IMG/VR virus record: IMGVR_UViG_3300038829_000181
Location: 1-41,508 of that record
DNA from: a virus
Taxonomy: Duplodnaviria; Caudoviricetes
Strand: one strand, 5' to 3'
Length of the DNA stretch: 41,508 nt
Position numbers and translations under genes: made by a program. This document shows, in pieces, positions 1 through 41,508 of this stretch. The notes below the pieces were generated by a model, which saw nothing but the letters and a program-made list of their open reading frames with translations, did no database searches and was not told the DNA's origin. The stretch's first letter is position 1. Every line of letters starts with the position of its first letter.

Positions 1-2
1 CC

Positions 3-129
3 GTTGGGCGGTTCCTGAAAATGGCTCAAATTTTATTCGGACAAATCTAATTAATGGAGAATAATGAAACCATCATTCAAAATAACTACAAGTTTTCCTC
101 TTAATCTGTCGTTGATATTAGTTATTGCA
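3..129. repeat. 127-bp terminal direct repeat (copy at 41382-41508), probably an assembly overlap indicating a circular genome
   Basis: GTTGGGCGGTTCCTG...GTTATTGCA is identical at 3-129 and 41382-41508. Bases 1-2 (CC) differ from 41380-41381 (GA). Confidence 0.95.
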
Positions 130-681
130 AGTGGGCTTGTTTCCTGTTCTCAACAACCAGTAGCTGCGAGTTCAGCCCAAAACGATTATTTGCCCGTTGC
201 CACTCAAACGGCAGAGAGTAAACCAACTGAAAAAGTTGAAAATTTTGAAACTACATATGGCATCACAGTCACAGCAAAAGCATTATGCACAGATGGTACA
301 AATACTACGCTCTATTTAGAGACTAATCTTGATTCGAATCTCTGGCAATTAAACGAGAAAGACTTTCACCCTCTTGGGAAGACTTACTTTGAGACAGGCA
401 TTTTATTCTTGGAAAATGGCGAAATGTTTTCGATGTATTCAAGTGGACACCGCGATGAGCCAATTTTCAATTCACAAAATAACATAGCCAGCACAATACA
501 AACCTTTGTTTTTCCAAAGACACCCTCGGAAAACTCCACATTTACTATCAAGGCAAAAGTGTCTTTGCTTGATTTACCCACTACCTATGCTCCCCCAGTT
601 AAGATGGATTTCTTAGAACCTGGAATTATCGAAATCCCAATGGAATATGTTGCATCTGCAACCATGGGAGTATGTCCGTAA
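64..681 (+). CDS. Integron cassette 1: putative lipoprotein
   Basis: GGAG RBS, hydrophobic signal with lipobox LVSC, AT-rich. Lies between core site GTTGGGC (3-9) and attC1. Confidence 0.85.
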   Translation: MKPSFKITTSFPLNLSLILVIASGLVSCSQQPVAASSAQNDYLPVATQTAESKPTEKVENFETTYGITVTAKALCTDGTNTTLYLETNLDSNLWQLNEKDFHPLGKTYFETGILFLENGEMFSMYSSGHRDEPIFNSQNNIASTIQTFVFPKTPSENSTFTIKAKVSLLDLPTTYAPPVKMDFLEPGIIEIPMEYVASATMGVCP

Positions 682-690
682 AAAAAAACC

Positions 691-820
691 GCCCAACAAA
701 GCGTGCACCTGACGCTGGGGATTCTGCGCAAATCCCAAGCAGTTTTCTACGCCTTATCATTTTTCCAGTTGGACGGCTTCGCCGTCCCCGCCCCAGCGCT
801 GGTAACGCAAACCGTTGGGC
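691..820 (+). other. attC site 1 (130 bp)
   Basis: R'' GCCCAAC at 691-697, internal imperfect palindrome (CGCTGGGG/CCCCAGCG), R' GTTGGGC at 814-820. Confidence 0.92.
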
Positions 821-842: not shown

Positions 843-1184
843 ATGTGTAATTCGGTAATTACCGTTGGCGCTGTGGCGTGCCTAGTCTGTGAGAAAGACA
901 TCACAGAAGCCATTCACGAGAATTTTTATCGTGACCCAGTTCAAACATACAAACAATATACTTGCCCGCATTGTCAAACGTTGCTTGATGTTGAAGTGAT
1001 TCCCGTTCCATATTTTCAATTGTCAATGCCTATTGGTCGTCTGGCTTCAACGCGCAAAGGTGTACCTTGTAAATACTGTGAAATTTTGGTTGAGTATGGC
1101 GATATGAAACCCTGGCGCAAAGATGACGATACCGTTGATATGCTTTGCCCTGGCTGTGATTGCGTTCTCGTCGAAGGCGAATAA
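843..1184 (+). CDS. Integron cassette 2: small protein with four CxxC motifs (putative double zinc ribbon)
   Basis: AAAGGAG RBS before ATG 843. Motifs CLVC, CPHC, CKYC, CPGC. The longer track ORF from 672 merely reads through attC1. Confidence 0.8.
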   Translation: MCNSVITVGAVACLVCEKDITEAIHENFYRDPVQTYKQYTCPHCQTLLDVEVIPVPYFQLSMPIGRLASTRKGVPCKYCEILVEYGDMKPWRKDDDTVDMLCPGCDCVLVEGE

Positions 1185-1187
1185 CGC

Positions 1188-1295
1188 GCCCAACAAAGCG
1201 TGCAGCCGACGTGTGCAAGGCTGTGGCGTAAAGATGTATCATTCCAAAAATAAGGTTATGGTTGGTCGCACACGCCGCTAAAGCACACGTTCTAC
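1188..1295 (+). other. attC site 2 (108 bp)
   Basis: R'' GCCCAAC at 1188-1194 followed by AAAGCGTGCA as in attC1. Stem CGTGTGC/GCACACG. R' GTTCTAC at 1289-1295. Confidence 0.85.
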
Positions 1296-1328: not shown

Positions 1329-1682
1329 ATGGAATTTACTAGAGAAGATACCCCAACAATCATGGATGGTGCTGTAGTTAGATATAGGTGTGGAGATTTT
1401 GAAATCAACGCTAGCAGGAATGGTGTATCTACCAATGGCTTTATGCCAATGATCCGTCAGCAGGAAGATTTAGATACTGTCTGTGAATACATGCGGCGGG
1501 CATTCAGGCAGTACGTAGCTTTATCACCAAATCGTTGGTTAACGCGTAGTTACGCAAGCCCGCTTCCTGAATCCGTCTTTGAGGCGGTAGAACACAGCTT
1601 GCACCCGACAAGTGAGACTCTGCCCGATCTACAAGCATCATCCACGCCTGAGCATTCGGCGACATCTCAAAGTGAATCCTAG
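1329..1682 (+). CDS. Integron cassette 3: hypothetical protein whose C-terminus is encoded within attC3
   Basis: AAAAGGAG RBS, ATG 1329, stop at 1680-1682 inside attC3. Confidence 0.75.
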   Translation: MEFTREDTPTIMDGAVVRYRCGDFEINASRNGVSTNGFMPMIRQQEDLDTVCEYMRRAFRQYVALSPNRWLTRSYASPLPESVFEAVEHSLHPTSETLPDLQASSTPEHSATSQSES

Positions 1683-1715
1683 CCCGCTCACTTGCGGGTA
1701 AAGCAAACGTTATGC
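1587..1715 (+). other. attC site 3 (129 bp)
   Basis: R'' GTAGAAC at 1587-1593, stem ACCCGACAAGTGAG/CTCACTTGCGGGT, R' GTTATGC at 1709-1715. Confidence 0.85.
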
Positions 1716-1759: not shown

Positions 1760-2002
1760 ATGCAAAGTCGAAATGAATTGGATCAGGTTGTCAACACAGA
1801 AGTTTTTGAAAACAATGATGAACTCAAAGCCAAGTTTGCCGAAGTGATTGAGAAGTCCGAAAGCCTGGGCGCTGTGTCTCATGCAATTGGTGAATTACCC
1901 AGCAAGGGAAGCACCGTTGATATTCTTGGCTTGCGCTACGAAGTCAAGTTTGTTGATGGTAAGCATGGCGAATTGCGCCTTAAGTTGGTGTCGCCCGCAT
2001 AA
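1760..2002 (+). CDS. Integron cassette 4: small hypothetical protein (80 aa)
   Basis: AAAAGGAG RBS, ATG 1760. The stop TAA lies in the R'' box GCATAAC, as is typical for cassettes. Confidence 0.8.
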   Translation: MQSRNELDQVVNTEVFENNDELKAKFAEVIEKSESLGAVSHAIGELPSKGSTVDILGLRYEVKFVDGKHGELRLKLVSPA

Positions 2003-2126
2003 CATCGCGTGCACCCGACGCTGGGGATTCTGGCGCGATTCCAAGCCTTTTTCTACGCCTCAGCATTTTCCCAGTCGGACGGCGTTCCGCCGCCCGCCCC
2101 AGCGCGGGTAACGCAAACCGTTGGGC
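1997..2126 (+). other. attC site 4 (130 bp), same family as attC1
   Basis: R'' GCATAAC at 1997-2003, R' GTTGGGC at 2120-2126. Shares GACGCTGGGGATTCTG, TTTTCTACGCCT, CCCAGCGC and GGTAACGCAAACCGTTGGGC with attC1. Confidence 0.92.
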
Positions 2127-2177
2127 GGCTTGTTGCGCGGTCAAAAACTCGTGGTAAATTGGTCTCTCATTAAACTC

Positions 2178-2206
2178 TTGACAATTGATTCGTGTAATGT
2201 TAAAAA
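2178..2206 (+). promoter_or_regulatory. Candidate late-operon promoter
   Basis: TTGACA at 2178-2183, 17-bp spacer ending in TGt, imperfect -10 TAAAAA at 2201-2206. Confidence 0.45.
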
Positions 2207-2333
2207 TATGCATACATAGCGCATTTGTGCTATCTTGAATTGATACCCTATAAGTGGGGAGTTGCCACCTGTAGATGGCAACTCCCCCGAGACAAAGCAA
2301 AGCCCGTTTTCATAAGGGGCAACTCTCGGAGAT

Positions 2334-2370
2334 AAGCGCCCGATGACTGAATAAGTCATCGGGCGCTTTT
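2334..2370 (+). terminator. Intrinsic terminator-like hairpin upstream of the late operon
   Basis: AAGCGCCCGATGACT-gaata-AGTCATCGGGCGCTT followed by TT. Confidence 0.7.
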
Positions 2371-2403
2371 GCGTTAATTCATATTTTCAAAAGGAGATTT
2401 GAC

Positions 2404-2835
2404 ATGAAAAAGTTTTTCAATATTTCGCTGGTCGGTGTTCTTTTGGCCGTGATGCTTTCGGCTTGCGCGCTTGCGCCATTGACAGGCGCAAATGATCCAT
2501 TGAGCGTGACCGAGGTGCAGATGTATGTGATCGGCGTGATCGCATCCGCATTGCTATATGGACTGAAATTGCTTGCGAAGCGTTTTCCGAAGATCGTCAT
2601 CAAGCGCGAATGGCTGATTGTCTTACTGTATGTCGTGGCGTTGGGACTGTCTTTATTTTGGGGCGGCGCGGTTCTGCCTCCACTTTCCCCATTTAGCGAC
2701 CCTGTGACGTTTGTGTCTGCGGTCTTTGGCTGGATTACTGCGCTGTTGATTGCCCTGGCTCCGTCTGTTTCTTTTGCCACGTTGATCTACAACATTTTGC
2801 TCAAGCGCATCTTTGATAACTGGGCAGGGAAATAA
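2404..2835 (+). CDS. Multi-pass membrane protein (holin-like candidate)
   Basis: AAAGGAG RBS, about four hydrophobic segments, lipobox-like LSAC. Confidence 0.6.
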   Translation: MKKFFNISLVGVLLAVMLSACALAPLTGANDPLSVTEVQMYVIGVIASALLYGLKLLAKRFPKIVIKREWLIVLLYVVALGLSLFWGGAVLPPLSPFSDPVTFVSAVFGWITALLIALAPSVSFATLIYNILLKRIFDNWAGK

Positions 2836-2840
2836 GGTTT

Positions 2841-3197
2841 ATGCCAACAGTACCCGTCAGTGTTTGGGATCAACTCCCCGTTGTTGTCATTTTCTCGTTT
2901 TTGTTGGCGGGTATTGCCTGGCTTATGGTCAAAGCGTTTTCAAAAGCCATTGCCGATATCAACGCTCATTATGCGTCGATCATCCAGACGAATAATGAAC
3001 AATGGCAAAAATATTTTGATGCGCGGTCTGAGAACTATCAACTGGTGAACGAAAAAGTTTTGAAACAGTTGGAAAACCTGACAATTGCCATTGGTAAATT
3101 CCATACTGATTTTATGGCGCATGATCTGATGGAACGCCAGGCGCTGGATGAGATGGCTGAAAAGCGCAAATTGGCGAAGAAAAATAGGAACGCGTAG
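2841..3197 (+). CDS. Membrane-anchored coiled-coil protein (holin/lysis accessory candidate)
   Basis: One N-terminal TM segment, helical body, basic C-terminus. Confidence 0.55.
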   Translation: MPTVPVSVWDQLPVVVIFSFLLAGIAWLMVKAFSKAIADINAHYASIIQTNNEQWQKYFDARSENYQLVNEKVLKQLENLTIAIGKFHTDFMAHDLMERQALDEMAEKRKLAKKNRNA

Positions 3198-3203
3198 GTC
3201 AGA

Positions 3204-3827
3204 ATGCCCATTCAAAAGCCCGATTATCAATTGTCGTTCAACCTCGATCTGCCAGAAGAAACTGGCGATTCGACGATTCAGCGACTCAGCGCGGATGAGA
3301 TCCGCCTGCGCTCCGAGACGGCGCGGCAGGTTTTTGAGGGACGCGATGATTTGAAGTGGATGGAGGAATATGCCCGCCTGCGCGACGGAGGCTGGGATTG
3401 GCGCGTGGCGGCTTATATTGCCTGGGCGAGTTCGCCGCGCTCGAGCCGCATTCCGAAAACGCAGGATGAGCTGGCAATAAATCATTTGGGTTTGACCTCA
3501 GACCGAGCGATTGCCACCTGGCGCAAGAAAAACCCCGCCATTGATGAGATGATCGCAATGTTACAGGCAAGCCCGCTCTGGGATTATCGCGCTGAGGTGT
3601 TTTCGGCGTTGACTGAGAACGCGGTCAAGCCCGATTACAAGACCCATAACGACCGCAAACTTTTCCTTGAATTGACTGGCGACTATGTCCCCAGCTCGAA
3701 ACTTGCGGCAATGATTACGAAGAATGGATTTAGCAAGAACGATCTGGCAGATATGAGCGATGATGAATTGCTGAAACTCGCCAAAAATTTTCGTGATGAA
3801 GTGACGAAAGACGAAGAGGAAGAATAA
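3204..3827 (+). CDS. terS: Terminase small subunit (putative)
   Basis: HTH-like segment PKTQDELA..LGLTSDRAIATWRK. Directly upstream of and coupled to TerL. Confidence 0.7.
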   Translation: MPIQKPDYQLSFNLDLPEETGDSTIQRLSADEIRLRSETARQVFEGRDDLKWMEEYARLRDGGWDWRVAAYIAWASSPRSSRIPKTQDELAINHLGLTSDRAIATWRKKNPAIDEMIAMLQASPLWDYRAEVFSALTENAVKPDYKTHNDRKLFLELTGDYVPSSKLAAMITKNGFSKNDLADMSDDELLKLAKNFRDEVTKDEEEE

Positions 3828-5416
3828 TGCTTGCGTCTTCAAATGTTGCCCAGAAAGCTCAACACGATCCGCGCAAGGCGGCTCTTGTTGCTTTGCAACG
3901 GGAGCAGGCACGCAGGCATTTGCTGGATTTTGCAACGATGATGCAGCCAAATTATCAGCGGACGGCGGCGCATGAATTGATCGCTTCCAAGTTGGAACAG
4001 GTGGAGAAGTACATCGTCAGCGGCGGCAAGGAAGGCATCGGACGCTTGATGATCTTCATGCCTCCGCGACATGGCAAAACGGAATTATCGAAATTATTTC
4101 AGGCTTGGTTTTTGGGACGCAACCCAGATATGCGGGTGATCACCACCTCTTATTCTGCGGACCTTGCGAACGATAACAGCCGCGCGGTGCGTGACCTGGT
4201 TGCAGGCAAACCATACGCGGGAGTATTTGGCAATTTGACATCGAGCGCGTCGCCTGTGGAGCTTTCGGATGATGCGCGTTCTGTTTCGGCGTGGTCACTC
4301 AAAGAGCCGCATAAGGGCGGAATGCTGGCGGCAGGCGTGGGCGGCGGTATTACGGGACGCGGGGCGCATCTGCTCAATATCGATGATCCATTCAAAAATC
4401 GCGATGAGGCTTCGTCGGAGAGTCATAGAAAGCGCGTTCTAAGCTGGTATCGCTCAGTGGCTTACACCCGTTTGGAGTACGGCGGCGCGGTGGTGTTGAT
4501 CAATACGCGCTGGGATCAGGAAGATTTGAGCGGCGAACTGCTGAGGCACATGGTCAGCGACGAATTGGGCGATGATTGGGAGATCGTTTTCCTGCCCGCG
4601 TTTGCGCTTGAAGAAAAAGATTACCCAAAGAACGATGCCGAATTCAAAGAGAATTTATTGCGCGGTATTTACATCCCCCAGGGCGGGGATCAGATCGGGC
4701 GCAAGCCTGGCGACCCGCTTTGGGCGGCGAAGTATGACCGCGAGCGTTTGGAGATCATCCGCTCGAATACATTGGACTTCGAGTTTACGGCGCAATATCA
4801 ACAGATGCCGCGTCTGGCTGAAGGTAATTTTTTCGATGACCGAGATTTTCCAATTGTGGAGCGCGCTCCCGAAGGTTTGCAGTGGTTCCGTTATGTGGAC
4901 CTTGCGAAGGGTCAGAACACGGGCAACGATTTCAACTGCACGTATGCGGTGGCGTTCGATAAAGATGGCGATCTGTTTATCCGCGACCCGTTGAAGGAGA
5001 GAAACATCGATGAGTTTTTGCCGCAGTGCAAGATGCTGATGTTGAGCGATACGGAATTGGGCGTGGCATGGGGCATCGAGGATGTTGCGTTTCAGTTTTT
5101 GGTGGTGCGCGATTTTCTGTCTGATGCGCGGCTGGCAAATGTCTCCATTATCGGTTTGCCCGTGAAAGGCTCGAAGGAAGATCGGGCGCGGGCGTGGCGT
5201 TTGCGGGCGAAGCAGGGCAGGGTGAAACTGGTGCGCGGTTTATGGAATTTGGATTTCATCCGCATTGCTTCGGCTTTTCCGAATGGACGGCACGATGATG
5301 ACGTGGATTCGGTCAGCGGCGGTGTGGCGATGATCGCGGGCGATGGAATGAATTTGCGGACCGCAAGCAGTGAGGCGATTGTGGTGAGCGCGGAATTGTT
5401 GTTTAGTGATCAGTGA
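3827..5416 (+). CDS. terL: Terminase large subunit
   Basis: Walker A MPPRHGKT, GITGRGAHLLNIDDP (Walker B), TRW motif, nuclease motifs YVDLA and FPNGRHDDDVDS. Confidence 0.95.
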   Translation: MLASSNVAQKAQHDPRKAALVALQREQARRHLLDFATMMQPNYQRTAAHELIASKLEQVEKYIVSGGKEGIGRLMIFMPPRHGKTELSKLFQAWFLGRNPDMRVITTSYSADLANDNSRAVRDLVAGKPYAGVFGNLTSSASPVELSDDARSVSAWSLKEPHKGGMLAAGVGGGITGRGAHLLNIDDPFKNRDEASSESHRKRVLSWYRSVAYTRLEYGGAVVLINTRWDQEDLSGELLRHMVSDELGDDWEIVFLPAFALEEKDYPKNDAEFKENLLRGIYIPQGGDQIGRKPGDPLWAAKYDRERLEIIRSNTLDFEFTAQYQQMPRLAEGNFFDDRDFPIVERAPEGLQWFRYVDLAKGQNTGNDFNCTYAVAFDKDGDLFIRDPLKERNIDEFLPQCKMLMLSDTELGVAWGIEDVAFQFLVVRDFLSDARLANVSIIGLPVKGSKEDRARAWRLRAKQGRVKLVRGLWNLDFIRIASAFPNGRHDDDVDSVSGGVAMIAGDGMNLRTASSEAIVVSAELLFSDQ

Positions 5417-5447
5417 TCAGTTTTCAGTAATCAGTAAGGAGAACAAC

Positions 5448-8066: not shown

Positions 8067-8129
8067 AAGTTCAAAGATGAAATATGAAGGATGAAGGATG
8101 AAAGTCCTTCATCCTTCAGGAGTTTTTTG

Positions 8130-8774
8130 ATGGGTACAACTCTTGCGGCGTTGATCGCTGAATTACAAAGTGAAGTTCCTGCGGTGAATTCCGTGCCTAC
8201 GGTGGCGCAATATACGCAGGCGATCAAGGATGCGGTGGCTGAGTTTTCGCGGCGCTGTGGGTTGATGAAGATTGCGGAGTTGTCCATTATCTCTGGCACT
8301 GCGGCATATAACCTGCCCGCTGATTTTTTGAAGTTGATCATGCTGGAAAGCCCGTCGGGAGCGGATGGAGTGATTATCTCGAATACGGGAATCATTCCAC
8401 TTTCGGCGGAATGGGAAGAGACACACCAGATCATAAATAAGATTATTACTTTTTTCCCGACGCCAGGCTATAGCATGACGCGCGAGTATCGTTATAAATC
8501 CGCGTGGGCGTTGACTGGCTCCAGCGGAAGCGAGACATACGCCGATATGGGCGACGATGAGGCGCAGATCGTGATGATCAAAGCGAAGGGATTTGCCAAA
8601 GAAAAACTGGCAAATGCACTGGCTTCAGGCGGTGGTATGAAATACAGCCTGGGCGCGGTGAGCGTGGATAAAGGCTCTGGCGCGGAAACCTTGACTTCTG
8701 ATATGTACGCTTTGCATGGTCAATTTGTGGATGCGTGCGAGCGCTATAACGGCGCGGTGTTGGGAATTAGTTAG
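8130..8774 (+). CDS. Putative head-tail adaptor
   Basis: Position after the capsid gene, YNLPADFL motif, AGGAG RBS. Confidence 0.6.
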   Translation: MGTTLAALIAELQSEVPAVNSVPTVAQYTQAIKDAVAEFSRRCGLMKIAELSIISGTAAYNLPADFLKLIMLESPSGADGVIISNTGIIPLSAEWEETHQIINKIITFFPTPGYSMTREYRYKSAWALTGSSGSETYADMGDDEAQIVMIKAKGFAKEKLANALASGGGMKYSLGAVSVDKGSGAETLTSDMYALHGQFVDACERYNGAVLGIS

Positions 8775-8807
8775 CCCTCACCCTAGCCCTCTCCCGTTGG
8801 AGAGGGG
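8775..8807. repeat. REP-like palindrome
   Basis: CCCTCACCCTAGCCCTCTCC-cgtt-GGAGAGGG, intergenic. Confidence 0.55.
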
Positions 8808-8818
8808 ATGGAGATGGA

Positions 8819-9136
8819 ATGGCATTTGATTGGACGCAGGCTCAAAAGGATATGCGGGCGATCCGCGCGGATAACGAGGTTTCGGTTGCGCTGAGGCGCG
8901 ATGCGACCACGTTAACGGCTCAACTCATGCGGATCGAATATGCAGGCGTGCGCGGGTTCCGTTTGCAATCTGATGCGGCTCGACAGGCAAACCAGGCTGT
9001 ATTTATTTTGGGCGAGCCTGATATGAATGTGGCGCTCGATGACCGCTTGACATACGGCGGTATTTTGTTCAAGGTCATTTTTATCCAGCCGAATAGACTG
9101 GCTTGCACGATTGCCGAGGCGGTGGCAATTGAATAG
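8819..9136 (+). CDS. Putative head closure protein
   Basis: Size (105 aa), beta-rich DDRLTYGG.LFKV pattern, synteny. Confidence 0.55.
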   Translation: MAFDWTQAQKDMRAIRADNEVSVALRRDATTLTAQLMRIEYAGVRGFRLQSDAARQANQAVFILGEPDMNVALDDRLTYGGILFKVIFIQPNRLACTIAEAVAIE

Positions 9137-9563
9137 TGGTTTTCAATGGGTAGTTGCTCCAAGCCAGCAGTTGATGCCTGCGATTGAGAAATACGGGCGC
9201 GATGTGCTGGTGGCTGTTCAGGCGGTGGCGAATTATTGGGGGCAGTCCATTCAGGATGAGGCGCGGCAGGAGGCGGTTTGGGAAGACCGCACAGGCAATG
9301 CGCGCGGCGGCATCTTCTTCGCGGTGGATGGATTTGGAATGAGTCCGCTGATGGGCGAGGTAACTCCCGAAGCCAAAAGTGAGATGAGCGATGTGGCAAT
9401 CGAAAGCGGCGATAAGGATACGTTGATCATCACTTTGGCGCATACGGTTTTTTATGGAAAGTTTTTGGAAACATCGAACGGTGAAACATACGCAATTATT
9501 ATGACAACTATTGAACAAAATCTGCCCGCGTTGGAACGAATGATACAGGATACGTTGAAGTGA
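9129..9563 (+). CDS. HK97 gp10-like neck/tail completion protein
   Basis: WEDRTGNAR and YGKFLE motifs. TTG start overlapping the previous stop is assumed. Confidence 0.7.
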   Translation: MNSGFQWVVAPSQQLMPAIEKYGRDVLVAVQAVANYWGQSIQDEARQEAVWEDRTGNARGGIFFAVDGFGMSPLMGEVTPEAKSEMSDVAIESGDKDTLIITLAHTVFYGKFLETSNGETYAIIMTTIEQNLPALERMIQDTLK

Positions 9564-9600
9564 TAGTCGAAGATCAAAGGTCAAAGGTCGAAGGTCAATT

Positions 9601-10887
9601 ATGCCAACATTATTAGATCGAATCAATGCGTTTATGAAGCCGCCTGTGCCTTCGGCAAGCGCCACAACTGCCGAGGGATCTGTCACCAGTTCGGCGGACG
9701 CGAGCATTGCGTTCTACGAGAAAATGAAATCAGACCGCGACCGCGCGGCGATCATCAAGACATGCCGAAAAATGTATGAGGGAGATCCGCGTGTGAAAAA
9801 GGCTTTGCGGACGTATGCCACAGATGTGGTGCGTTCTGGTTACTTCGTGAAGACCAAAGACGCGCAGGCATTGGAAGTGGCGCAGGCGTTGCAGAAGCGG
9901 CTTGGGCTGAATAAAAAGTTGCAGGATGCCACCCGCCTGACTGGGCGCGATGGTGATTCGTTCTACGAGGTGGTGGTGGATGAAAACTTAGACATCGTAA
10001 AACTGTCACGCAAACCCACCTTGCAGATGCGCCGCAACAGCAATTCGTATGATGAGTTCGATAATCCGCAAAAAGCGTTTTGGATGACGAGTGAAAATTA
10101 TATGATGGCAGAACCGCCCAGGGATGCAATCTGGTTTTCAAGCTGGCAGATCATTCATATCCGTTTCGAGCACGACGAAGAAAAACGATATGGCTCGCCG
10201 ATGTGGGCTTCGGCTACGGGCGCATTCAAACGTGTGACCGAGGGCGAGATTGATATTTCTGTGCGGCGCAAGGTGCGCGCTGGAATGATCCTGCATCACG
10301 TAGTTGAAGGTTCGCCTTCTGACGTTGAAACATACAAAGAAAAAAACAAAGCCGCAGAAGACAATCCATTTGCGGCGATCCGCAATTATTACACCAATAA
10401 GCCTGGCTCGATCTCTGCCATTCAAGGCGACGCGCACCTGAGCGAGATTGCGGATATTACCCACCACATTGAAACCATGTTTACAGCAAGCGACATCCCG
10501 ATGGAATTGGTTGCCTATGGCGGGGACCTCAACCGTGATGTGCTCGGCGAGAAAAAAGAGGAGTACGACGAAACGCTCAATGATGGGCGTGAGTGGCTGA
10601 GCGAGGAATTTTTGAAACCGTTGCTTGAATTGCAATGGCTCTTGAAAGGCATTCTGCCCGAGAACATCAAGTATGAAATTGTGTGGCGCAAGGCAAAGAA
10701 TTTGACTCCGATCATGCTGCGCGATCTGGCGGATGGACTGATGCGTTTGCGGGTGCTGGGCGTGAAGGAAGAATTGATCCAATCCCTGCTGGCTACGTTT
10801 GTGCCTGGCATTGATATTGACATCCTTGGCGGCGACGGCATGGACAGCACGGCGTTTGCAAATAACCTCAAAGGTTTGAGCATCTAA
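9601..10887 (+). CDS. Portal protein
   Basis: 428 aa with RDGDSFYEVV, QIIHIRF and YGSPM portal-like motifs. Followed by a head morphogenesis gene. Confidence 0.8.
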   Translation: MPTLLDRINAFMKPPVPSASATTAEGSVTSSADASIAFYEKMKSDRDRAAIIKTCRKMYEGDPRVKKALRTYATDVVRSGYFVKTKDAQALEVAQALQKRLGLNKKLQDATRLTGRDGDSFYEVVVDENLDIVKLSRKPTLQMRRNSNSYDEFDNPQKAFWMTSENYMMAEPPRDAIWFSSWQIIHIRFEHDEEKRYGSPMWASATGAFKRVTEGEIDISVRRKVRAGMILHHVVEGSPSDVETYKEKNKAAEDNPFAAIRNYYTNKPGSISAIQGDAHLSEIADITHHIETMFTASDIPMELVAYGGDLNRDVLGEKKEEYDETLNDGREWLSEEFLKPLLELQWLLKGILPENIKYEIVWRKAKNLTPIMLRDLADGLMRLRVLGVKEELIQSLLATFVPGIDIDILGGDGMDSTAFANNLKGLSI

Positions 10888-12459: not shown

Positions 12460-13293
12460 ATGACAACTGGTATAGATGGCAAGCCGTTTGGTCTCAAAGA
12501 GATCGTGGTGGTTTCCTACGACGGCGTGACTGCAATTTCATTGCCCGCAGCTTTGGAATTGGAGTTTGAGGAAACCGTGGTGAGCGGTGAGTTTTTCGGC
12601 AATGATGAATTGCAGGGACTCGTCACCCAGCCTCTGGGCGTGAAGGGCAAGTTCAAGAGCGGCGGTATTCCGCTGAACGCCTATGCCCTGATGACGGGTC
12701 ACACGTATGGCGTTTCTGGTTCCACGCCAAACGAAGTGGCGACATTGCAGGGCAATTCACCCACCTTCCCGTATTTCAAGGTGTACGGCAAGAGCCTGGG
12801 CGATGTGGGTGATGACATTCATGTCAAACTTATGAAGATCAAATTGACTGGCTCCCCGAAGGGATCATTCAAGCGCGGCGAGTTCTTCATGCTTGAAGCC
12901 GAATTCCAGGGCGTGAAAGTTTCTGGCAAGGCGTATGACCTGGTGGCCAACGAAACCACAACCGCTCTGCCTGGTGCGACCGCTTCAGCTCCCGCGTTCA
13001 CACTTTCCAGCAGCCCCGCAGATGCGGCGGTTGGTGTGGTGATCTCTGCCAATGTGGTACTCACCTTCAGCAATGCGCTTCGCGTTGGCGCTGAGGATGC
13101 AATCATGTTGACGACCGCGGCGGGCGTGCCCGTGGCGGTTGCCCGCACGATCGATGCGGCCCGCAAGGTGGTGACGCTTGACCCAACCAGCAATATGAGC
13201 GCGTTGACAGCGCACTTGATCATCGTGCCTGGTGTGGTGGATGTATTCGGCCAGGCTTTGGCTAATACGGTAAGAGATTTTACAACTGCATAA
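12460..13293 (+). CDS. Major tail tube protein with C-terminal Ig-like domain
   Basis: FGLK N-terminal motif, C-terminal SSPAD..V...V.LTFS...DFTT (Big_5-like), AAGGAG RBS. Confidence 0.8.
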   Translation: MTTGIDGKPFGLKEIVVVSYDGVTAISLPAALELEFEETVVSGEFFGNDELQGLVTQPLGVKGKFKSGGIPLNAYALMTGHTYGVSGSTPNEVATLQGNSPTFPYFKVYGKSLGDVGDDIHVKLMKIKLTGSPKGSFKRGEFFMLEAEFQGVKVSGKAYDLVANETTTALPGATASAPAFTLSSSPADAAVGVVISANVVLTFSNALRVGAEDAIMLTTAAGVPVAVARTIDAARKVVTLDPTSNMSALTAHLIIVPGVVDVFGQALANTVRDFTTA

Positions 13294-13354
13294 GAAAGGA
13301 TGAATGATGAAGGATGAAGGATGAATTCCTTTGTCCTTCATCATGGTTACGATT

Positions 13355-13804: not shown

Positions 13805-14039
13805 CTCTGCGACTGCCTATGGAAAACGCCCGAGCGATTATTTTCATTTCGAGACCGAGATCGCGGCATGGGCTTTGGATGAAGCCTGTTTGATGACTGG
13901 CAGGAAGTTCGAGAATTTGTTGAATGAAGGGAAAAATCCTTTCAGTGATCAGTTATCAGTGAGCAGTAAACAGGGTTATGCGCCTGTGGCAAAGGGCAAT
14001 ATCAAGAAGGTCAAGATCAATGCAAATGGAACATGGTGA
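13770..14039 (+). CDS. Tail chaperone T-like ORF, probably reached by frameshift
   Basis: Overlaps the end of G in the +1 frame and ends just before the TMP. Confidence 0.6.
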   Translation: MMDKTNLWRLYNSATAYGKRPSDYFHFETEIAAWALDEACLMTGRKFENLLNEGKNPFSDQLSVSSKQGYAPVAKGNIKKVKINANGTW

Positions 14040-23404: not shown

Positions 23405-23448
23405 AAAACCAAGCATCCTTCTCAGTGATGAGAAGGATGCTTGGTTTT
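23405..23448. terminator. Bidirectional terminator between convergent late operon and integrase
   Basis: Perfect 20-bp stem AAAACCAAGCATCCTTCTCA-gtga-TGAGAAGGATGCTTGGTTTT. Confidence 0.85.
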
Positions 23449-25059
23449 TACGTGGAATGCTGTTTTGAGAATGTGTCTATATAGAGGCGGTCCCGACGGG
23501 GGTTGGAATGTAGACACATTCTCAGGCGCCGCGGGACCGTGGGCTTTTGGGAGGTTGGGCGGGGGGTAGTAGTAATAGATTGTGCCGTGGAGCATTTTGT
23601 CTTCGCGGCGGACTTCTACGCGGTCTACGATGAGGCGGAGGAGGAGGCGTTGGGTGTCGAGGTTGGCGGCGGCGAAGGCTTGGGCGTAATTGACGGCGAT
23701 GTAGGCGAGCACGTCTGGGGGGATTGCGGAAACGGGTTCGATGGCGGAGGCTTCGAGATCGGCGAGTTGGCTTTCGAGATCGGTTTCGTCCATCTCCAGT
23801 TCTTTGAGACGTTTGGCGGGGGCTTTGGCTTGCTTACCAAGTTCTTCGAGGATATCCATCACGTTGGTAATTTTCTTTCGGACGGAAGCAAGCCTGGTCT
23901 TGAAGTCGAGGCGTTTTTCTGTCTGTTTGACCAACTGCTTGGCGGAATCAGACTTCAGTTGTTCGTAGGCGGCGAGGAGATTTTCTGGCTTGAGGATGAC
24001 GCTTGTAATGGTATCCCTGACGGCGTTCTCGACCGTCTCGCGTGGGATGCGGCTCTTGGTGCAGTCGCGTTTTCGATAGGCGCGGGTGCAGAAGTAGCTG
24101 TCGTAGGTCTTGCCGCTTTTTTGCGGAGAGGAACGACCGAAGAGAGGCGAGCCACAATGAGCGCAGCGACCGATGCCGCTGAGAAGGAAGCGGGATTTGG
24201 CACGGCGCGGATGATCCATTGAATCAGTGGCGACGTGCTTTCGGCGGGCGTAATGATTTTGGACGATCTGCACCTGGTTCCATAATTCGGGGCTGACCAT
24301 CGGTTCGCAATAATTTTCGATGACGAGATCTGCGAATTCAAGCGTGCCTTTGTAGATTTTATTGGCGAAGAAGGTGGAATAGGAGTTGATGCCGCTGTAG
24401 AGTTTGGTCTCTTTGTGGATCTCGCCCAGCGATATGCGACGCACGCGCATTTCGTAGGCTCGCCTGACGCGGGGGATAAAGTCTGGGTCTGGAATCCACT
24501 TGTGGGCGGTATGAGGCGTTCCGTCGCGCCGCAAACCGATGGTGACAGGCTCACGCATAAACCCGCGCGGACATCCGCCAGGGACGCATCCATAGCGTTC
24601 GACAAGATTTCGCAGGCCGCGTTTGACATCGAGGGAGAGGTCTTCGAGATATTGTTCGTCCTTGAAGTCTATGGCGGCTTCAAAGAGGCGGCCCATGGGA
24701 CCATCGGGCACTTTGTCGTTCATGCTGTAGAAGATGTAGCCCAGAGTGCGAATCTCAGCGCGAAAGAATTGAGCATTATCCACCGAGCGGGCGAAGCGGT
24801 TATATTTCCAAACGACTACACCGCGTTCGCTGCATTCGTGACGGAAGGCATACATCATGGCTTGCAGTTCATCACGTTTGACAACGCTGGAGCCGCGCCG
24901 CGCTTCATCCTTGAAGATGCGAGTGACAACCAGGTTATTTTCTGCCGCCCATTTGCGCAGTGCGGCTTCTTGTTGTTCTATGGAAAGTTCCTGGTCTTCG
25001 TGACCGCTATCGCGCAGGTAGCAGAAGATTCGGTCGGCAGGGGAGAAGGGGAGGGTCAT
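23422..25059 (-). CDS. Large serine recombinase (phage integrase)
   Basis: Catalytic YLRDS, SIEQQ, NRFAR, recombinase domain, zinc ribbon LLSGIGRCAHCG...YFC...C, coiled coil. Start at MTLPF is assumed. Confidence 0.92.
   Translation of the reverse strand: MTLPFSPADRIFCYLRDSGHEDQELSIEQQEAALRKWAAENNLVVTRIFKDEARRGSSVVKRDELQAMMYAFRHECSERGVVVWKYNRFARSVDNAQFFRAEIRTLGYIFYSMNDKVPDGPMGRLFEAAIDFKDEQYLEDLSLDVKRGLRNLVERYGCVPGGCPRGFMREPVTIGLRRDGTPHTAHKWIPDPDFIPRVRRAYEMRVRRISLGEIHKETKLYSGINSYSTFFANKIYKGTLEFADLVIENYCEPMVSPELWNQVQIVQNHYARRKHVATDSMDHPRRAKSRFLLSGIGRCAHCGSPLFGRSSPQKSGKTYDSYFCTRAYRKRDCTKSRIPRETVENAVRDTITSVILKPENLLAAYEQLKSDSAKQLVKQTEKRLDFKTRLASVRKKITNVMDILEELGKQAKAPAKRLKELEMDETDLESQLADLEASAIEPVSAIPPDVLAYIAVNYAQAFAAANLDTQRLLLRLIVDRVEVRREDKMLHGTIYYYYPPPNLPKAHGPAAPENVSTFQPPSGPPLYRHILKTAFHVKTKHPSHH
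23466..23524. other. Candidate attP within the 3' end of the serine integrase gene
   Basis: Perfect 14-bp inverted repeats TGAGAATGTGTCTA/TAGACACATTCTCA around a 31-bp centre containing a sequence like a tRNA 3' end. Confidence 0.6.
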
Positions 25060-25105
25060 AAGCGTTACACGTCGAAAGTCGAACTTCGGAGGGGGGGGAT
25101 TTCGG

Positions 25106-25660
25106 TCATGGCAGATTCTCGCAAGCAAGTCCGTCATTTTCACGGTCAAGGCCATAAATATCCCCATAGCCCAAAGATTTACAGTATTCATAACATGCTT
25201 GTGCTATAGAGTGTGTTGGAAAATCTTCCACTTTGCAATCAAGGTCAATGCCTGTACATGAGCATAATTTCCCGCCTGATGACGGTGGTTGTGTTTGCTG
25301 TATTTGTTGCGTCGCTAAAGAAAAAGGCGTGTTGGTTGAATAAATATATTCGGTCAGTTGTACTACATTGGTTTGAAGTTGGAAAATAAATATTGTGGCT
25401 GTTGGGGCAATTTCAATCGTTGACGCAAGTGTTGTAGTGGAAAATGGCATTGGATTGGATATCGCAGTTTGAGTTTGAGCAGATGAGGAAGTAAGCGCGA
25501 TGATGCTGGAAAGGGGAAGTGGCGTATCTTGAATTGGCGCAGATGTTGAAAGAGTTGAATCGCTGGAAGCAACCGCAAGCACGAGAACCAGACAAACACA
25601 ACATAAACTTACGATGACAGCAATCGAATAATTCAATATTTTGCGGGTTGTTTTTTTCAT
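25106..25660 (-). CDS. Membrane-anchored protein with Ser/Thr linker and excalibur-like Ca-binding C-terminus
   Basis: N-terminal TM, DLDC..F...AQ and LDRENDGLACE motifs. Confidence 0.75.
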   Translation of the reverse strand: MKKTTRKILNYSIAVIVSLCCVCLVLVLAVASSDSTLSTSAPIQDTPLPLSSIIALTSSSAQTQTAISNPMPFSTTTLASTIEIAPTATIFIFQLQTNVVQLTEYIYSTNTPFSLATQQIQQTQPPSSGGKLCSCTGIDLDCKVEDFPTHSIAQACYEYCKSLGYGDIYGLDRENDGLACENLP

Positions 25661-25816
25661 TTCACCCAATGCGCTGGATAGAGACGAATTTCCAGCCAGC
25701 GCAGATAAAAGTATTTGATGTGTTCGATGACTTGGTAAAGAGTGGGGAATGAGTGCCAGAGAATAAGCAAAGTGAAGCGCAGTTGTTGAAGCGGAGGAAG
25801 GTATTTCCAATCCCGC

Positions 25817-26203
25817 TCAATCGCCGCGCGTCTTTCCTCGCTTTGATGTTGTTTGAATCCGTTCAGTGATTTTCTTCGCTTCATATTTTGCGGCTTCCTC
25901 CGCGATCTGTCTGGCAATTTGTTCCTGTTTTTCTTCGCTCATGAATTCCCAATTGTTGATCGCAACTTGTAAATATGGATTAGGGTGGGGAAGACCCATT
26001 ACATCGTAAATATCATTTCCAAATGTTTCAGCAAGTAGTTTGATATTTTCTCTGCCAGGCTTTTTATTGCCATTCATCCACATATTGAGAAGTGGACGAC
26101 TTACACCCAAATAAATAGCAAATTCTTCGACGGTTTTTCTTTTCCCCAGACTCGCCTGCCATTCAACAAATTTTCGGTTTACCCATTGAGGAAATGTATC
26201 CAT
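25817..26203 (-). CDS. CI-like repressor (XRE HTH)
   Basis: EEFAIYLGVSRPLLNMWMNGNKKPG helix-turn-helix, divergent from the cro-like gene. Confidence 0.85.
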   Translation of the reverse strand: MDTFPQWVNRKFVEWQASLGKRKTVEEFAIYLGVSRPLLNMWMNGNKKPGRENIKLLAETFGNDIYDVMGLPHPNPYLQVAINNWEFMSEEKQEQIARQIAEEAAKYEAKKITERIQTTSKRGKTRGD

Positions 26204-26304
26204 TGATATTGATATTGTAGTGGTAATAAGTGGCATATGTAAGACCCTTGACATAATTTGAATAAGTGGTTACTATGTAACCTAAGTTACATATCGAAAC
26301 CGCC
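26204..26304. promoter_or_regulatory. Lysis/lysogeny switch: divergent promoters and two operators
   Basis: Rightward TTGACA(26248)-17-TACTAT(26271). Leftward TTACAT-17-TACAAT, 10 nt before the repressor ATG. Operators TATGTAA-N6-TKACATA at 26236-26255 and 26274-26293. Confidence 0.8.
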
Positions 26305-27708: not shown

Positions 27709-27880
27709 TTAGGCGGCCTGGTAAACCGCCGAAAGAGAGCAAGTGCTTTCGTTCTCTCCTCCTTTGGTAATGGTGACATCCTGGTTAGCTTGGCTTGATC
27801 AGGATGTTACCAGAGCCGAGGAAGACCAGTAAACAGTAATCAGTGAGCAGTAATCAGTCAAACCAAAAGGAGAAAATACC

Positions 27881-28316: not shown

Positions 28317-28844
28317 ATGAGCAAAAAACATTACGAATCCATCACTGTCTACGAAACCGTGAAAGGCAAACAAATTGCCAAAGTCCGTATGATTGGAATG
28401 CGGCAGGAAACGGCGAACTTTATCAAATGGATTCGCAACCAAAAGAATGAATTCTTCTATATTCGCCCTGACCAGATAAAGATATTTGATGCTTTTTTTG
28501 CCTTGGGGATAGGAGAAGGTAAAACCGAACTATCCCAATATTTGAATGAATATGATGCGATTACAAGCGGCAGGTCATATTCTTCCAAGTCAGATGGAAA
28601 ATCGGAACAATTCAAGGTTTTTCAATGCGCATACACTCTGCATAAATACTTTCTCAAAGGTAACATGCGCCCCATTGAGAATTTCATCTCCATGCTGGTA
28701 GATATTGCCAAAGAGAGCGATTACGAAAAGCCAGCGATGGAAGTGAAAGCCTTATTATCCAGCATCAAAACCGAACTTGATAAACAGATCGAAATATTCG
28801 ATCTTGCCGATGTACTCAATCGTGGCGCGGAAAAGGGCGAATGA
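28317..28844 (+). CDS. Hypothetical protein
   Basis: AGGAG RBS before MSKKHY. Confidence 0.7.
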   Translation: MSKKHYESITVYETVKGKQIAKVRMIGMRQETANFIKWIRNQKNEFFYIRPDQIKIFDAFFALGIGEGKTELSQYLNEYDAITSGRSYSSKSDGKSEQFKVFQCAYTLHKYFLKGNMRPIENFISMLVDIAKESDYEKPAMEVKALLSSIKTELDKQIEIFDLADVLNRGAEKGE

Positions 28845-28845
28845 T

Positions 28846-29769
28846 ATGCAAACCAATTACCAATTACCAACTACCCTCACCCTCCACTGGCTCGATCAAT
28901 TCAAATCTTACCTCGAAACCGATCATCGCAAAGTCACACATCGCCAGTTGAGCGATAAATCAATCAGGCTTGCAGTACAGCATGTCCGCGTGTTTGGTCT
29001 CTGGCATGAAGCGCAATTCAAAGAAACCTTCGAGCCTGGCACGCTCACCAACTATGCGTTGCACCTTTATCGAAAGGTATCGCTTGAGCAGGAAAAGGTC
29101 AAAGCTGCAACGTGGAACAGCCGTCATTGGGCGCTCGGCATCCTTTGTACATGGATTGCTCTTCCCGATCTCATGGATGGCATCGAGCAAAAACAAAAGG
29201 GACGCGCATCTACCAAGCACCGCAGTCTCACCGATGATGAATATCACTGCATCGTCCGCCAAATCGAAAAAGACACCCGCGATGAAGTTCTTGAATTCCA
29301 CTATCACACTCGCCTGCGCAATCGCGCCGCAGTTGCGTTCATGCTCCATGCTGGTTTGCGCGTTGAGGAAGTTTCCCTGCTTGCTGCTACTGATGTGGAG
29401 ATATGGGAGCGCAGTGGCGAAGTTTTAGTCCGCGACGGGAAAGGAGATAAAGAGAGATCAGTCAGATTGAACCTGGTCGCACGCAATTCAATCGCTCCCT
29501 ATCTCAATCTGACAGTTGATACTGCGTCCCTGTTAAGTCTCACCACCCGAACATTAGAGCGCATCGTCAAGGAGATTGGTCAACGCATCGGCATCCCTGA
29601 TCTAACTCCGCACTGGCTGCGCTACACAGCCGCCAAACGCCTCGAGCAAACAGGTTCTACGCTCGAAGAGATCCGCGATTTTCTTGGACACAACTCAATC
29701 GAGACCACCCGCCGCTATCTCCGCTCCTCAATGGAGCAAATGCAAGCGGCAGTTGATAGGGCGATGTGA
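28846..29769 (+). CDS. XerC/D-like tyrosine recombinase
   Basis: AGLRVEE, GKGDKER, PHWLRYT and LGHNSIETT.RY catalytic motifs. Lacks the IntI insertion. Confidence 0.9.
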   Translation: MQTNYQLPTTLTLHWLDQFKSYLETDHRKVTHRQLSDKSIRLAVQHVRVFGLWHEAQFKETFEPGTLTNYALHLYRKVSLEQEKVKAATWNSRHWALGILCTWIALPDLMDGIEQKQKGRASTKHRSLTDDEYHCIVRQIEKDTRDEVLEFHYHTRLRNRAAVAFMLHAGLRVEEVSLLAATDVEIWERSGEVLVRDGKGDKERSVRLNLVARNSIAPYLNLTVDTASLLSLTTRTLERIVKEIGQRIGIPDLTPHWLRYTAAKRLEQTGSTLEEIRDFLGHNSIETTRRYLRSSMEQMQAAVDRAM

Positions 29770-39212: not shown

Positions 39213-39558
39213 CTTTCAAAAGCAGTTTGCGCCGATGATACCAGAACGTAAATGGCACACGGTTCGACGCAAACGCAAGCATCCAACGAAAGTTGGGGAT
39301 GCGCTTTATCTTTACACGGGGATGCGGACAAAACAATGCAGATTGATCGTTGAGTTGCCCTGCCTGTTTATAAAGCCCATCGAAATTTACCCTGATGAAA
39401 TGCAAGTTATGCTTGATGACGTTCAATTGAGTGTGGATGAAGTCAATTCATTTTTTTATCATGATGGTTTCGATGACGCATATGATTTCTTTGATTTCTT
39501 TCGACGGTATCCGCCAGATGTGCGTGAGAATGAGTTGGAAGCCATTTATTGGAGGTAG
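39196..39558 (+). CDS. ASCH/PUA-like phage protein
   Basis: NFQKQFAP.I...K.HTVR...VGD.LYLYTGMRTK and DGF pattern. Confidence 0.7.
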   Translation: MMPAYNFQKQFAPMIPERKWHTVRRKRKHPTKVGDALYLYTGMRTKQCRLIVELPCLFIKPIEIYPDEMQVMLDDVQLSVDEVNSFFYHDGFDDAYDFFDFFRRYPPDVRENELEAIYWR

Positions 39559-39560
39559 AG

Positions 39561-40394
39561 ATGAGCAAAACAAAAATTGAATATGGTGATCGGACTTGGA
39601 ATCCTTTGACTGGATGCACGATCAAGAGCGAGGGGTGCGTGAATTGCTGGGCTGCGACCATGGCAAAGCGGCTGCGGGCGATGGGGCGGCCTGAATATCA
39701 GGATGTGGTGGATGATCGCGGGCATTGGACTGGCTTGATTACGATTGTGCCTGAGCGTTTGATCGAGCCGTTGACCTGGCGCAAACCACAGCATGTATTG
39801 GTTGAATTTATGGGCGATCTATTCCATGAAAAAGTTAACCTGCCGTTTTTGAAAAATATTTTTGACGTGATGAAAGAGACTCGGCAGCATGTATATCAGA
39901 CCCTGACAAAGCGTCCTGAAAACATGAAGGCGGCTTTGCATTTTTCCGTTTACGCGCCGTTGCCGAATGTGATTCTTGGCGTGAGTATTGAAAATCAAAA
40001 ACGGGCGGATGAACGGCGCGAGTTTATGCGTGAACTTTCGCAGGCTGGCTGGCGGACGTGGGTGAGTTATGAACCTGCTTTGGGAAATGTGGATTGGGAG
40101 GGATGGGAATTTTTGAATCAGTTGGTTTGCGGCGGGGAGAGTGGTCCGCGGGCGAGAGCGATGCACCCTGATTGGGCGAGGTCTGCTCGTGATTTTTGTC
40201 AGAAGCATCACATCCAGTTTTTCTTCAAACAGTGGGGGGAATATGCTCCGTTGGATCATTTGGTTTGGGTGACGGACAAGACTACTTTTAGCCATAAGCC
40301 TGTTGATCTTGATGGCGTGACGATGTGTCGGGTGGGGAAGGGACTGGCGGGGCATATGTTGGATGGTCGTGAGTGGAATGAGATGCCGAGGTGA
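39561..40394 (+). CDS. Phage Gp37/Gp68 (DUF5131) radical-SAM-like protein
   Basis: TWNPLTGC...GCVNCWA, MGDLFHE, LTKRPE, GGESG and FFFKQWGE motifs. Confidence 0.9.
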   Translation: MSKTKIEYGDRTWNPLTGCTIKSEGCVNCWAATMAKRLRAMGRPEYQDVVDDRGHWTGLITIVPERLIEPLTWRKPQHVLVEFMGDLFHEKVNLPFLKNIFDVMKETRQHVYQTLTKRPENMKAALHFSVYAPLPNVILGVSIENQKRADERREFMRELSQAGWRTWVSYEPALGNVDWEGWEFLNQLVCGGESGPRARAMHPDWARSARDFCQKHHIQFFFKQWGEYAPLDHLVWVTDKTTFSHKPVDLDGVTMCRVGKGLAGHMLDGREWNEMPR

Positions 40395-40397
40395 AGA

Positions 40398-41375
40398 ATG
40401 GCTGAGAAAAAATTCCTCGAAAAATTAGTGGATAAAATCCGCGTGAAGCAATATTCATATAAGACAGAAAAAACTTATGTGGATTGGGCTGAGAGATATA
40501 TTCGTTTTCATAAACTTCGTCATCCTAAAGAAATGGGGAAGCCAGAAATTGAATCGTTTTTGACCTATCTTGCCAATTCAAATGTGAGCGCATCCACGCA
40601 AAATCAGGCATTGGCGGCGATTCTATTTATGTATCGAGAAATGTTTGGAGTTAAGTTTGAAAATATTCAGGCGGTTCGCGCGAAGCGATCTGTGCATATC
40701 CCAACTGTTTTGACGGTTGATGAGGTAAGACGTGTACTTTGTCGTTTGCACGGTATTTATCACACAATTGGCTATTTGCTTTATGGCGGCGGTTTGCGAT
40801 TAATGGAATGTCTTCGCTTGCGGGTGAAGGATATTGATTTTGAATTGAAGACCATCACGCTTCGAGATACGAAAAGTAATCGTGATCGTGTCACCTTTTT
40901 GCCTGACGCTGTGATTGAGCCATTGCGTTTACATCTGGCAAAAGGGAAAGCGCAACATGATGAAGATTTATCCAAAGGTTTTGGAAGCGTTGAATTACCA
41001 GGCGCGCTTGCAAGAAAATATAAAAATGCTGAATACGAATGGGGTTGGCAATATGTTTTTCCTGCCAGCCAATTTTCGCGCGATCCAAGAAGTGGGATTG
41101 TGAGGCGGCATCATTTATATGAAACCTCTGTTCAAAAGGCGGTTCGTAAAGCGGCGCGAGAAGCTGGAATTATCAAGCCAGTTGGTCCGCATACTTTCCG
41201 TCATTCATTTGCTACACATTTATCGAGAGGAGGAACAAACATTCGAGATATACAAGAATTGCTTGGGCATAAAGACCTAAAGACCACGATGATCTATATT
41301 CACGTGGCTGGTATGGATGAGGGGTTGAAATCACCCCTGGATAGTATGGTTATTAGTGACCCTGTGGGTCTCTAA
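40398..41375 (+). CDS. intI: Integron integrase
   Basis: [37 protein letters not shown]. IntI-specific insertion [13 protein letters not shown]...WGWQYVFPA....[21 protein letters not shown] and LLGHKD..TTMIY. Confidence 0.96.
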
Positions 41376-41388
41376 TAACGAGTTGGGC
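41370..41388 (+). other. attI site overlapping the intI stop codon
   Basis: CTCTAAT-AACGA-GTTGGGC parallels the attI1 simple site CCCTAAA-ACAAA-GTTRRRY. Cassette 1 begins at this GTT. Confidence 0.8.
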
Positions 41389-41508
41389 GGTTCCTGAAAA
41401 TGGCTCAAATTTTATTCGGACAAATCTAATTAATGGAGAATAATGAAACCATCATTCAAAATAACTACAAGTTTTCCTCTTAATCTGTCGTTGATATTAG
41501 TTATTGCA

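Follow-up and report, generated by a model that had tools for sequence, protein, structure and literature searches.

By sequence comparison, a groundwater virus record (IMGVR_UViG_3300038829_000181; the window below is this entire record of 41,508 nt) holds a complete integron of the inverted type, and a lineage of temperate phages carries such an integron in the same slot; we consider it likely that it serves them as a cassette-swapping platform of their own. The sequence-only reading of this DNA had proposed a complete integron made of IntI, attI and four ORF plus attC units, and this was confirmed by the match of the integrase to TIGR02249, by the conserved attI block and by the self-complementary attC ends.

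Profile scans found head, tail, lysogeny and replication modules all in the window, with matches for the terminase, portal, protease-capsid fusion, tail tube, tape measure, serine integrase and repressor. This combination of packaging, head and tail genes with an integrase and a repressor is that of a temperate tailed phage, and a relative with the integron in the same slot (L376; L-numbers label the fetched comparison loci) is integrated between host genes. No endolysin family was matched among the scanned window proteins, and no attP was located. The lysogeny module (23422..26254, minus strand), with the serine integrase, a lipoprotein-like gene and the repressor, lies apart from the integron. 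The slot of the integron is found between the actin-like/DUF5131 block and the terminase, with the DUF5131 gene (39549..40394, plus strand; PF07505) on its left, and two membrane-protein genes, a likely small terminase and the large terminase on its right (2404..5416, plus strand; profile matches). Elsewhere in the window, an 886-aa prohead protease is fused to a likely capsid protein and an Ig-like stretch (5406-8066). A perfect 20-bp inverted repeat, likely a two-way terminator, lies over the stop of the serine integrase gene (23405-23448; the gene is 23422-25191), and a second tyrosine recombinase besides IntI, conserved in relatives, is encoded in the early region (28777-29769). The interval between repressor and integrase harbors a membrane or secreted protein gene (25106-25810) whose Cys-rich end shares 40% identity with a gene that L383 carries amid genes of the host. 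Short intergenic repeats with units of 6-7 bases form two families (5397-5441, 13943-13973 and 27827-27857; 8073-8102 and 13282-13325).

The intI gene (40398..41375, plus strand) encodes a protein of 325 aa and is transcribed towards the array. The protein scored 405 bits against TIGR02249 (cut-off 265), and its best solved relative was V. cholerae IntI4 (2a3v, E 2e-79), in an alignment that covers the IntI-specific insertion; the integrase with this insertion, first proposed from the letters alone, therefore passed the IntI-specific HMM. Residues R134, K159, H265, R268, H291 and Y300, which we take to be the catalytic positions of IntI, are all present and are invariant across 14 aligned IntIs. 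The protein is 46% identical to IntI1 and reached 313 bits against PRK15417, below the cut-off of 435. A class 1 identity was rejected on this identity and on the absence of a transposase among the 47 window proteins scanned; no resistance family was found among them either, and the earlier statement that neither was recognised was borne out. The intI start is located 3 nt past the DUF5131 stop, and it lies within 10 nt of the preceding stop in the window and in 12 of 29 relatives. A consensus scan found no sigma-70-like site on the plus strand between 36841 and 41417, where host promoters may differ from the consensus, and the counts of the promoter and terminator scans were not above those of shuffles. 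An SOS-box motif gave six loose matches, none of them upstream of intI, an uninformative outcome.

The attI (41352..41384, plus strand) sits at the 3' end of intI, overlapping its last seven codons and stop, with the G/TT crossover at 41382/41383. Nine aligned sites share 29 invariant columns; conservation stops at the GTT, and the crossover point is where sister phages start to differ. The last 16 bases match attI1, taken from the P1 record, at 10 of 16 positions (counted by eye). The site had been called attI1-like, which holds for this core but not for its location, at the opposite end of intI. An attI with a G/TT crossover thus adjoins the integrase gene, as in an integron, and intI is co-directional with the cassettes with attI on its 3' side, which is the arrangement of the inverted type. 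This orientation, with intI pointing to the array, had been missed by the sequence-only reading. We compared 87 viral IntI loci, some of them near-duplicates, collected by searches with IntI, the terminase, the first late gene, the attC motif and the IntI alignment. The attC sites lay downstream on the same strand in 27 of them and upstream on the other strand in none; the other 60 had no attC under a covariance model trained on 19 Anaerolineales-type sites (the window's four and 15 others), some being cut by contig ends and many probably belonging to other hosts. One further viral contig (L165), with a truncated IntI, has the divergent layout. Chloroflexota chromosomal loci of the usual type carried attC in 11 of 22 cases, all upstream and opposite (divergent). 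In the roughly 60 viral loci that are attC-less under the model (L006-L014, L262, L264, L266, L268, L270-L281 and others; L007 scores 410 bits), the next phage gene often follows directly on the stop of intI, and these may have other attC types or be cassette-less integrases. Separately, 147 IMG/VR stretches contain the Anaerolineales attC end motif (L105-L250), and many of these carry 3-8 sites in an array but lack an IntI within the locus fetched.

Four attC sites, all on the plus strand, were found downstream by a regex search and by the covariance model, whose match is by construction since the same sites are in its training set. Each of the four cassettes opens, counted from the crossover G, with 10 bases that are reverse-complementary to its own R'' end (10/10, 9/10, 10/10 and 10/10), and the two odd cassette starts, GTTCTACCGC and GTTATGCGGG, are also complementary to their own R'' ends. 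This self-complementarity is the strongest proof that the cassette units are inserted circles. In the excised-circle form the sites fold more stably than every one of 200 shuffles (z -3.8 to -6.2). Folded within the array, attC1 and attC4 beat shuffles (z -2.9) and attC2 and attC3 gave no signal (z -0.4), which is expected because their R' comes from the next cassette. The sites combine complementary R'' and R' ends with a hairpin fold and bound single-gene cassettes, and the genes lie relative to attC as in bacterial arrays.

Cassette 1 (ORF 64..681, plus strand, 205 aa) encodes a predicted lipoprotein of host type with a beta-sandwich domain, and its 33 homologues, with an invariant C28, include Anaerolineales. 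Its predicted structure (pLDDT 79) matched only immunoglobulin-like chains, at low TM-scores of 0.22-0.32. The cassette is 86% identical, end to end over 728 nt, to one in a bacterial-type array of five attC sites, and its attC1 (691..820, 130 nt, crossover G at 814) shares 93% identity with an attC from an Anaerolineae chromosome (L101). It was present in 0 of 5 and in 1 of 301 host-family genomes, the single copy being without attC, and two of five metagenome loci with it were placed inside arrays by the covariance model, strongly for L322 and weakly for L324. Cassette 2 (843..1184, plus strand) encodes a Cys-rich, likely zinc-binding protein of 113 aa with sub-threshold Pfam matches only and 45% identity over 51 aa to a cassette of phage locus L001; its attC2 (1188..1295, crossover G at 1289) is 92% identical over 97 nt to a phage attC (L021). 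Cassette 3 (1329..1682, plus strand, 117 aa) has the only gene of the window that reads into its attC, with the final ~32 codons read from attC3 (1587..1715, crossover G at 1709; found by regex, covariance model and circle fold), and it is 61% identical to an attC-less gene of phage L252 whose stop is where attC3 begins. Cassette 4 (1760..2002, plus strand, 80 aa) is 38% identical to an attC-less gene of phage L259 and ends in attC4 (1997..2126, crossover G at 2120; regex, covariance model and both folds). Cassettes 2 to 4 thus have phage homologues, attC-less for 3 and 4. PHROGs, Pfam and PADLOC gave no name for any of the four proteins. Behind attC4 we found the 5' remnant of a fifth, promoter-bearing cassette (2120..2207, plus strand), fused at TTGACA to a likely late promoter (-35 at 2178); over 64 nt it shares 86% identity with the beginnings of cassettes in L253 and L106, and its downstream part is 73% identical to L138. 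A promoter-bearing cassette of this kind is whole in L106 and is also seen at cassette starts in L147 and L253.

The linkage of the integron to the phage was followed in contigs of four runs (X1-X4) from two samples of one study, of which X1 and X2 may come from the source sample; 16 of the 20 listed runs contained just 5-6% of the window's words. The DUF5131-intI junction is spanned by contigs at 39778-41050 (X1), 40057-40715 (X2) and 40354-40575 (X3), intI, attI and cassette 1 stand on a single 774-nt contig of X3 (41327 to 721), and the attC4 end is joined to the late genes by a contig of X1 (2099-3285). The check that had been set for intI and the end of the array, contigs linking them to phage genes, was thus passed. 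It had been proposed that the array runs across the circular junction. The array does continue over the contig ends, where a terminal overlap of 127 nt (41382..41508 = 3-129, plus strand), bridged from 41327 by the 774-nt contig, repeats the first 127 nt of cassette 1. The ends are not a clean circle, however: bases 1..2 (plus strand) are two bases of an attC 3' end and differ from 41380-41381. Loose ends before 41382 in X1, X2 and X4 are attC ends as well, so that cassette 1 is preceded both by attI and by attC ends, and it has about 2.5-3 times the phage depth. The mismatch at bases 1-2 arises because cassette 1 follows both attI and attC ends in the sample. Given the two upstream contexts and the excess depth, there are at least four cassettes, and the simplest circle would measure 41,379 bp. 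No other cassette followed attI in the contigs of the four runs, and contigs drop rare variants.

These irregularities speak for a chimeric assembly, in which all or part of the array would come from a host chromosome and have been fused with phage sequence at attC repeats. The window's attC family is very abundant in the sample, with attC bins at a depth of more than 1,000, and none of the contigs of the four runs spans attC1 or attC4. We nevertheless regard a chimera as highly improbable, since DUF5131 and intI are bridged in two samples, intI, attI and cassette 1 share one contig in the second sample, cassettes 2-4 share one contig at phage depth (7.5-7.6, against 6.5-7.9 for long phage contigs) and nine independent relatives have the same slot, several on one unbroken contig. 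With no contig over attC1, the order of cassettes 1 and 2 rests on the window's assembly. An unsettled cassette order, or extra cassettes hidden between 1 and 2, is a rather unlikely complication and one that leaves the main claim unaffected.

The nine relatives (L003, L020, L252, L253/L018, L263, L265, L284, the prophage L376 and the GenBank phage Rctr41k) share the DUF5131-intI-array-late gene order, as the sequence-only reading had asked to see, with cassettes that differ from those of the window. In L020, the region from primase to portal (96% identical) is on one 40-kb contig, and L376 has host genes on either side of it on a 330-kb contig; the genome with this contig belongs to the same family as an Anaerolineales MAG. 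The slot of L021 has a deleted intI and ten attC sites, and that of L251 is seen up to the contig end. In L254, L261, L004 and L379 the integron is at an earlier position, and in L024 the slot holds two other small genes, one weakly HicA-like, and no integron; the slot can thus be integron-free (L024, L254). IntI was found in none of seven prophage regions fetched by terminase likeness, one of which ends at a contig edge within an attC array. L251 and L376 agree at 93.5% over the 1,938 nt that lead up to the GTT, are unrelated in the array until the last attC and are then again 93% identical. Whole cassettes recur elsewhere (cassette 2 of L284 is cassette 2 of Rctr41k, at 93%, and cassette 3 of L020 is cassette 1 of Rctr41k), and among 108 cassette units compared, recurring cassettes also cross IntI clades. 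In L021 (438-3918) the first cassette is repeated as the seventh (90%), downstream of the internally deleted intI. The commonest recognisable cargo in relatives was a DNA methyltransferase, in 11 of 98 cassette proteins scanned (chosen by us from 136 ORFs); among 42 cassette proteins scanned for defence families, none was found beyond methyltransferases and one weak HTH match. Genes read into the attC in 74 of 96 cassettes of phage arrays, most stopping 15 nt before the attC end, and in 2 of 24 chromosomal ones, a pattern that by sequence marks a phage-type cassette pool mixing with host cassettes. The hosts are likely Anaerolineales, to which the context of L376, attC1 and cassette 1 point, and the slot would likely be used for accessory-gene exchange among the phages and with these hosts. 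The earlier proposal of a domesticated accessory-gene slot able to take host cassettes is supported by the HMM, the linkage, the synteny and the cassette 1 match; it needs amending in that the slot is a trait of a phage lineage and not of the window phage alone.

Trees were built from 155 rows and then, more carefully, from 58 rows; Treponema IntI was not among the rows. The window IntI falls in a clade of 28 members (support 100/100) made of the window, 19 viral contigs, three prophage loci, four chromosomal loci and one other mobile element. The idea that this clade is confined to phages was rejected, five of the 28 members not being in phages. The usual IntIs of Chloroflexota group elsewhere in the tree, as does a second phage clade (L020, Rctr41k) whose members occupy the same slot. 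A further 120 metagenome IntI proteins, 71-95% identical to that of the window, are known without genomic context. The chromosomal members were the best matches among 401 host-family genomes, of which 188 have some IntI; they stand at four different loci and do not form a single clade (p-AU 8e-42), which implies several transfers. Their nesting suggests a direction from phage to chromosome, in a tree where viral sampling is heavier. These inverted integrons of the phage-type clade (L375:9487-13895, L377:9870-12406, L381:9488-11922, L025:3157-4282) each have a lipoprotein-like first cassette after attI, and three of the genomes have another IntI too. Another mobile element has an 80%-identical IntI beside E2/ThiF-type genes, truncated where the contig stops (L378:10062-10857).

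The chromosomal copies bear on the possibility that a piece of a chromosomal integron was captured once at prophage excision, as in Vibrio phages, and is now passive cargo. Close copies with the same attI do exist in chromosomes (L025 75%, L375 81% and L377 70%), and cassette 1 and attC1 are of host type. Such a capture is very unlikely: the integron is ~15 kb from the serine integrase, inside an operon and with no host genes adjoining, the four chromosomal copies at four loci are not a clade, the same slot is filled by two distinct IntI clades, the arrays of sister phages differ, and the synteny already largely refutes it.

A different question is whether the phage-borne integron is real but the IntI of the window is dead or marginal, with attI and the array a docking site for a host integrase. 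The protein departs from 10 of 188 columns conserved among 120 relatives (median departure 4), and five of the departures (L276S, Q277R, D281N, K284D and T301I) are close to the active site; the relative L251 is without these unusual substitutions. The intI gene is broken in L020 (internal stop), L021 (deletion) and L001 (cut 3' end), the IntIs present in the host family could do the shuffling, and many viral attC arrays have no IntI in the fetched locus. We judge this reading unlikely, although less so than a single capture. The frame is intact with the six catalytic positions all kept, a 95%-identical relative has the same unusual substitutions, which are therefore not sequencing errors, and the attI is specific to the window's IntI clade and overlaps its gene. 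Moreover, dN/dS was 0.05-0.12 in five of seven window pairs, with dS saturated in the other two and near saturation otherwise, which indicates an intI lineage long selected for its protein. In L001 (2042-3075), intI ends just past the catalytic tyrosine and runs directly into an attC, and the attI appears deleted.

Under our preferred reading, in which the phages use an active integrase of their own, IntI would integrate excised cassettes at the attI that lies over the end of its gene. By analogy with IntI1 and IntI4, for which this is established, it would act on the bottom strand of attC in folded form and recombine it with attI; such chemistry of other IntIs is described in PMC9892861. The gene, presumably without a promoter of its own, would be made with the rightward early/middle transcript in lytic growth, and this transcript would also read the cassettes up to the late promoter. 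The inverted layout would suit a phage because no separate cassette promoter is needed and the integrase would be present during phage DNA replication. As the first position is where new cassettes enter, cassette 1 would be the latest capture, presumably from a host array. The benefit would be a quick exchange of small accessory genes, among which methyltransferases are the commonest recognisable in relatives.

A further proposal, that phages convert ordinary genes to cassettes by adding a 3' attC, trade them with host arrays and seed inverted integrons into chromosomes, is possible but doubtful. Points that may speak for it are the attC-less homologues of cassettes 3 and 4, the difference in read-through (74/96 vs 2/24), the four scattered chromosomal copies, and the best attC-less homologues of read-through genes, which stop within 10 codons of the attC start in 10 of 18 cases (a regex-based and filter-biased count). 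Loss of attC, or transfer from chromosome to phage, fits the same data too.

Integrons are usually treated as bacterial devices that phages take up rarely and accidentally. If our reading is true, phage genomes would have a second route to mosaicism: a lineage that keeps an integrase under selection, together with a fixed slot and a cassette pool of its own, would swap accessory genes such as methyltransferases in a site-specific way. Such a lineage would also be a plasmid-free vehicle for cassettes and whole integrons between cells. If the conversion of ordinary genes to cassettes were true, phages would be a workshop for new cassettes and a source of chromosomal integrons. The paired free and cassette forms of the same genes make cassette origin testable, both comparatively and by assay. 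Anaerolineae are common in wastewater plants. No resistance gene was found in the window array, but a literature listing ties Chloroflexota integrons to sul4, and together with the presence of Anaerolineae in such plants this route deserves watching.

In the open full-text literature searched, the sole study of integrons in phage genomes was that of Qi et al. 2023 (PMC9892861), and no account of a lineage-wide phage integron was met; the supplementary CALIN table of that paper could hold a relative. They found three complete integrons in 10,705 phage genomes: that of Vibrio phage Va_90-11-286_p16 is a host chromosomal piece captured at excision, that of E. coli P1 L-II is class 1 cargo accompanied by Tn402/IS26, and that of Shewanella M16-3 is in a cryptic prophage. 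The earlier view took phage integrons to be rare and mostly class 1 cargo; complete ones outside class 1 had already been published. No such lineage appears in the consulted sections of PMC13676570, PMC13323075, PMC8618304 and two 2026 preprints; one of these preprints reports a resistance integron within a prophage. Like the integrons of Qi et al., that of the window has intI, attI and attC cassettes inside a tailed phage, with methyltransferase cargo in the group; unlike them, it has a slot conserved lineage-wide, its own IntI clade, the inverted layout and phage-type cassettes.

The inverted intI layout is shared with the Treponema integrons, as described by Wu et al. 2013 (PMC3607928) and Cury et al. 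2016 (PMC4889954), but those are chromosomal, and in the window attI overlaps the coding end of intI and intI is wired into a phage operon. With the Anaerolineae chromosomal integrons (L035, L056, L083, L095, L101) the window shares the attC family (93% for attC1) and the orientation of gene to attC. Unlike the window, they have IntIs only 53-59% identical, in a separate clade, and a divergent layout, and their genes stop before the attC in 22 of 24 cassettes whereas those of phage cassettes mostly read into it. From class 1 integrons, whose attI1 is matched by the window's attI core at 10 of 16 positions, the window element differs by its distance from IntI1 and the PRK15417 cut-off, its opposite layout and the lack of any transposase or resistance gene found. 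Another close known case is Rctr41k (KX853513.1, L327), a related 41-kb phage with an IntI of 383 bits and six attC in the same slot, unlike the window in that its IntI is in the second phage clade. The accession is listed in Gambelli et al. 2016 (PMC5099504), whose main text does not use the word integron. It was deposited as a "partial genome" with IntI annotated as xerD, and partial genomes were excluded by Qi et al. Positions 4680-10101 of KX853513.1 form an unrecognised complete inverted integron with cassettes common to L020 and L284. By every sequence test run the window element is an integron, and it is the phage-lineage-wide form that appears to be new.
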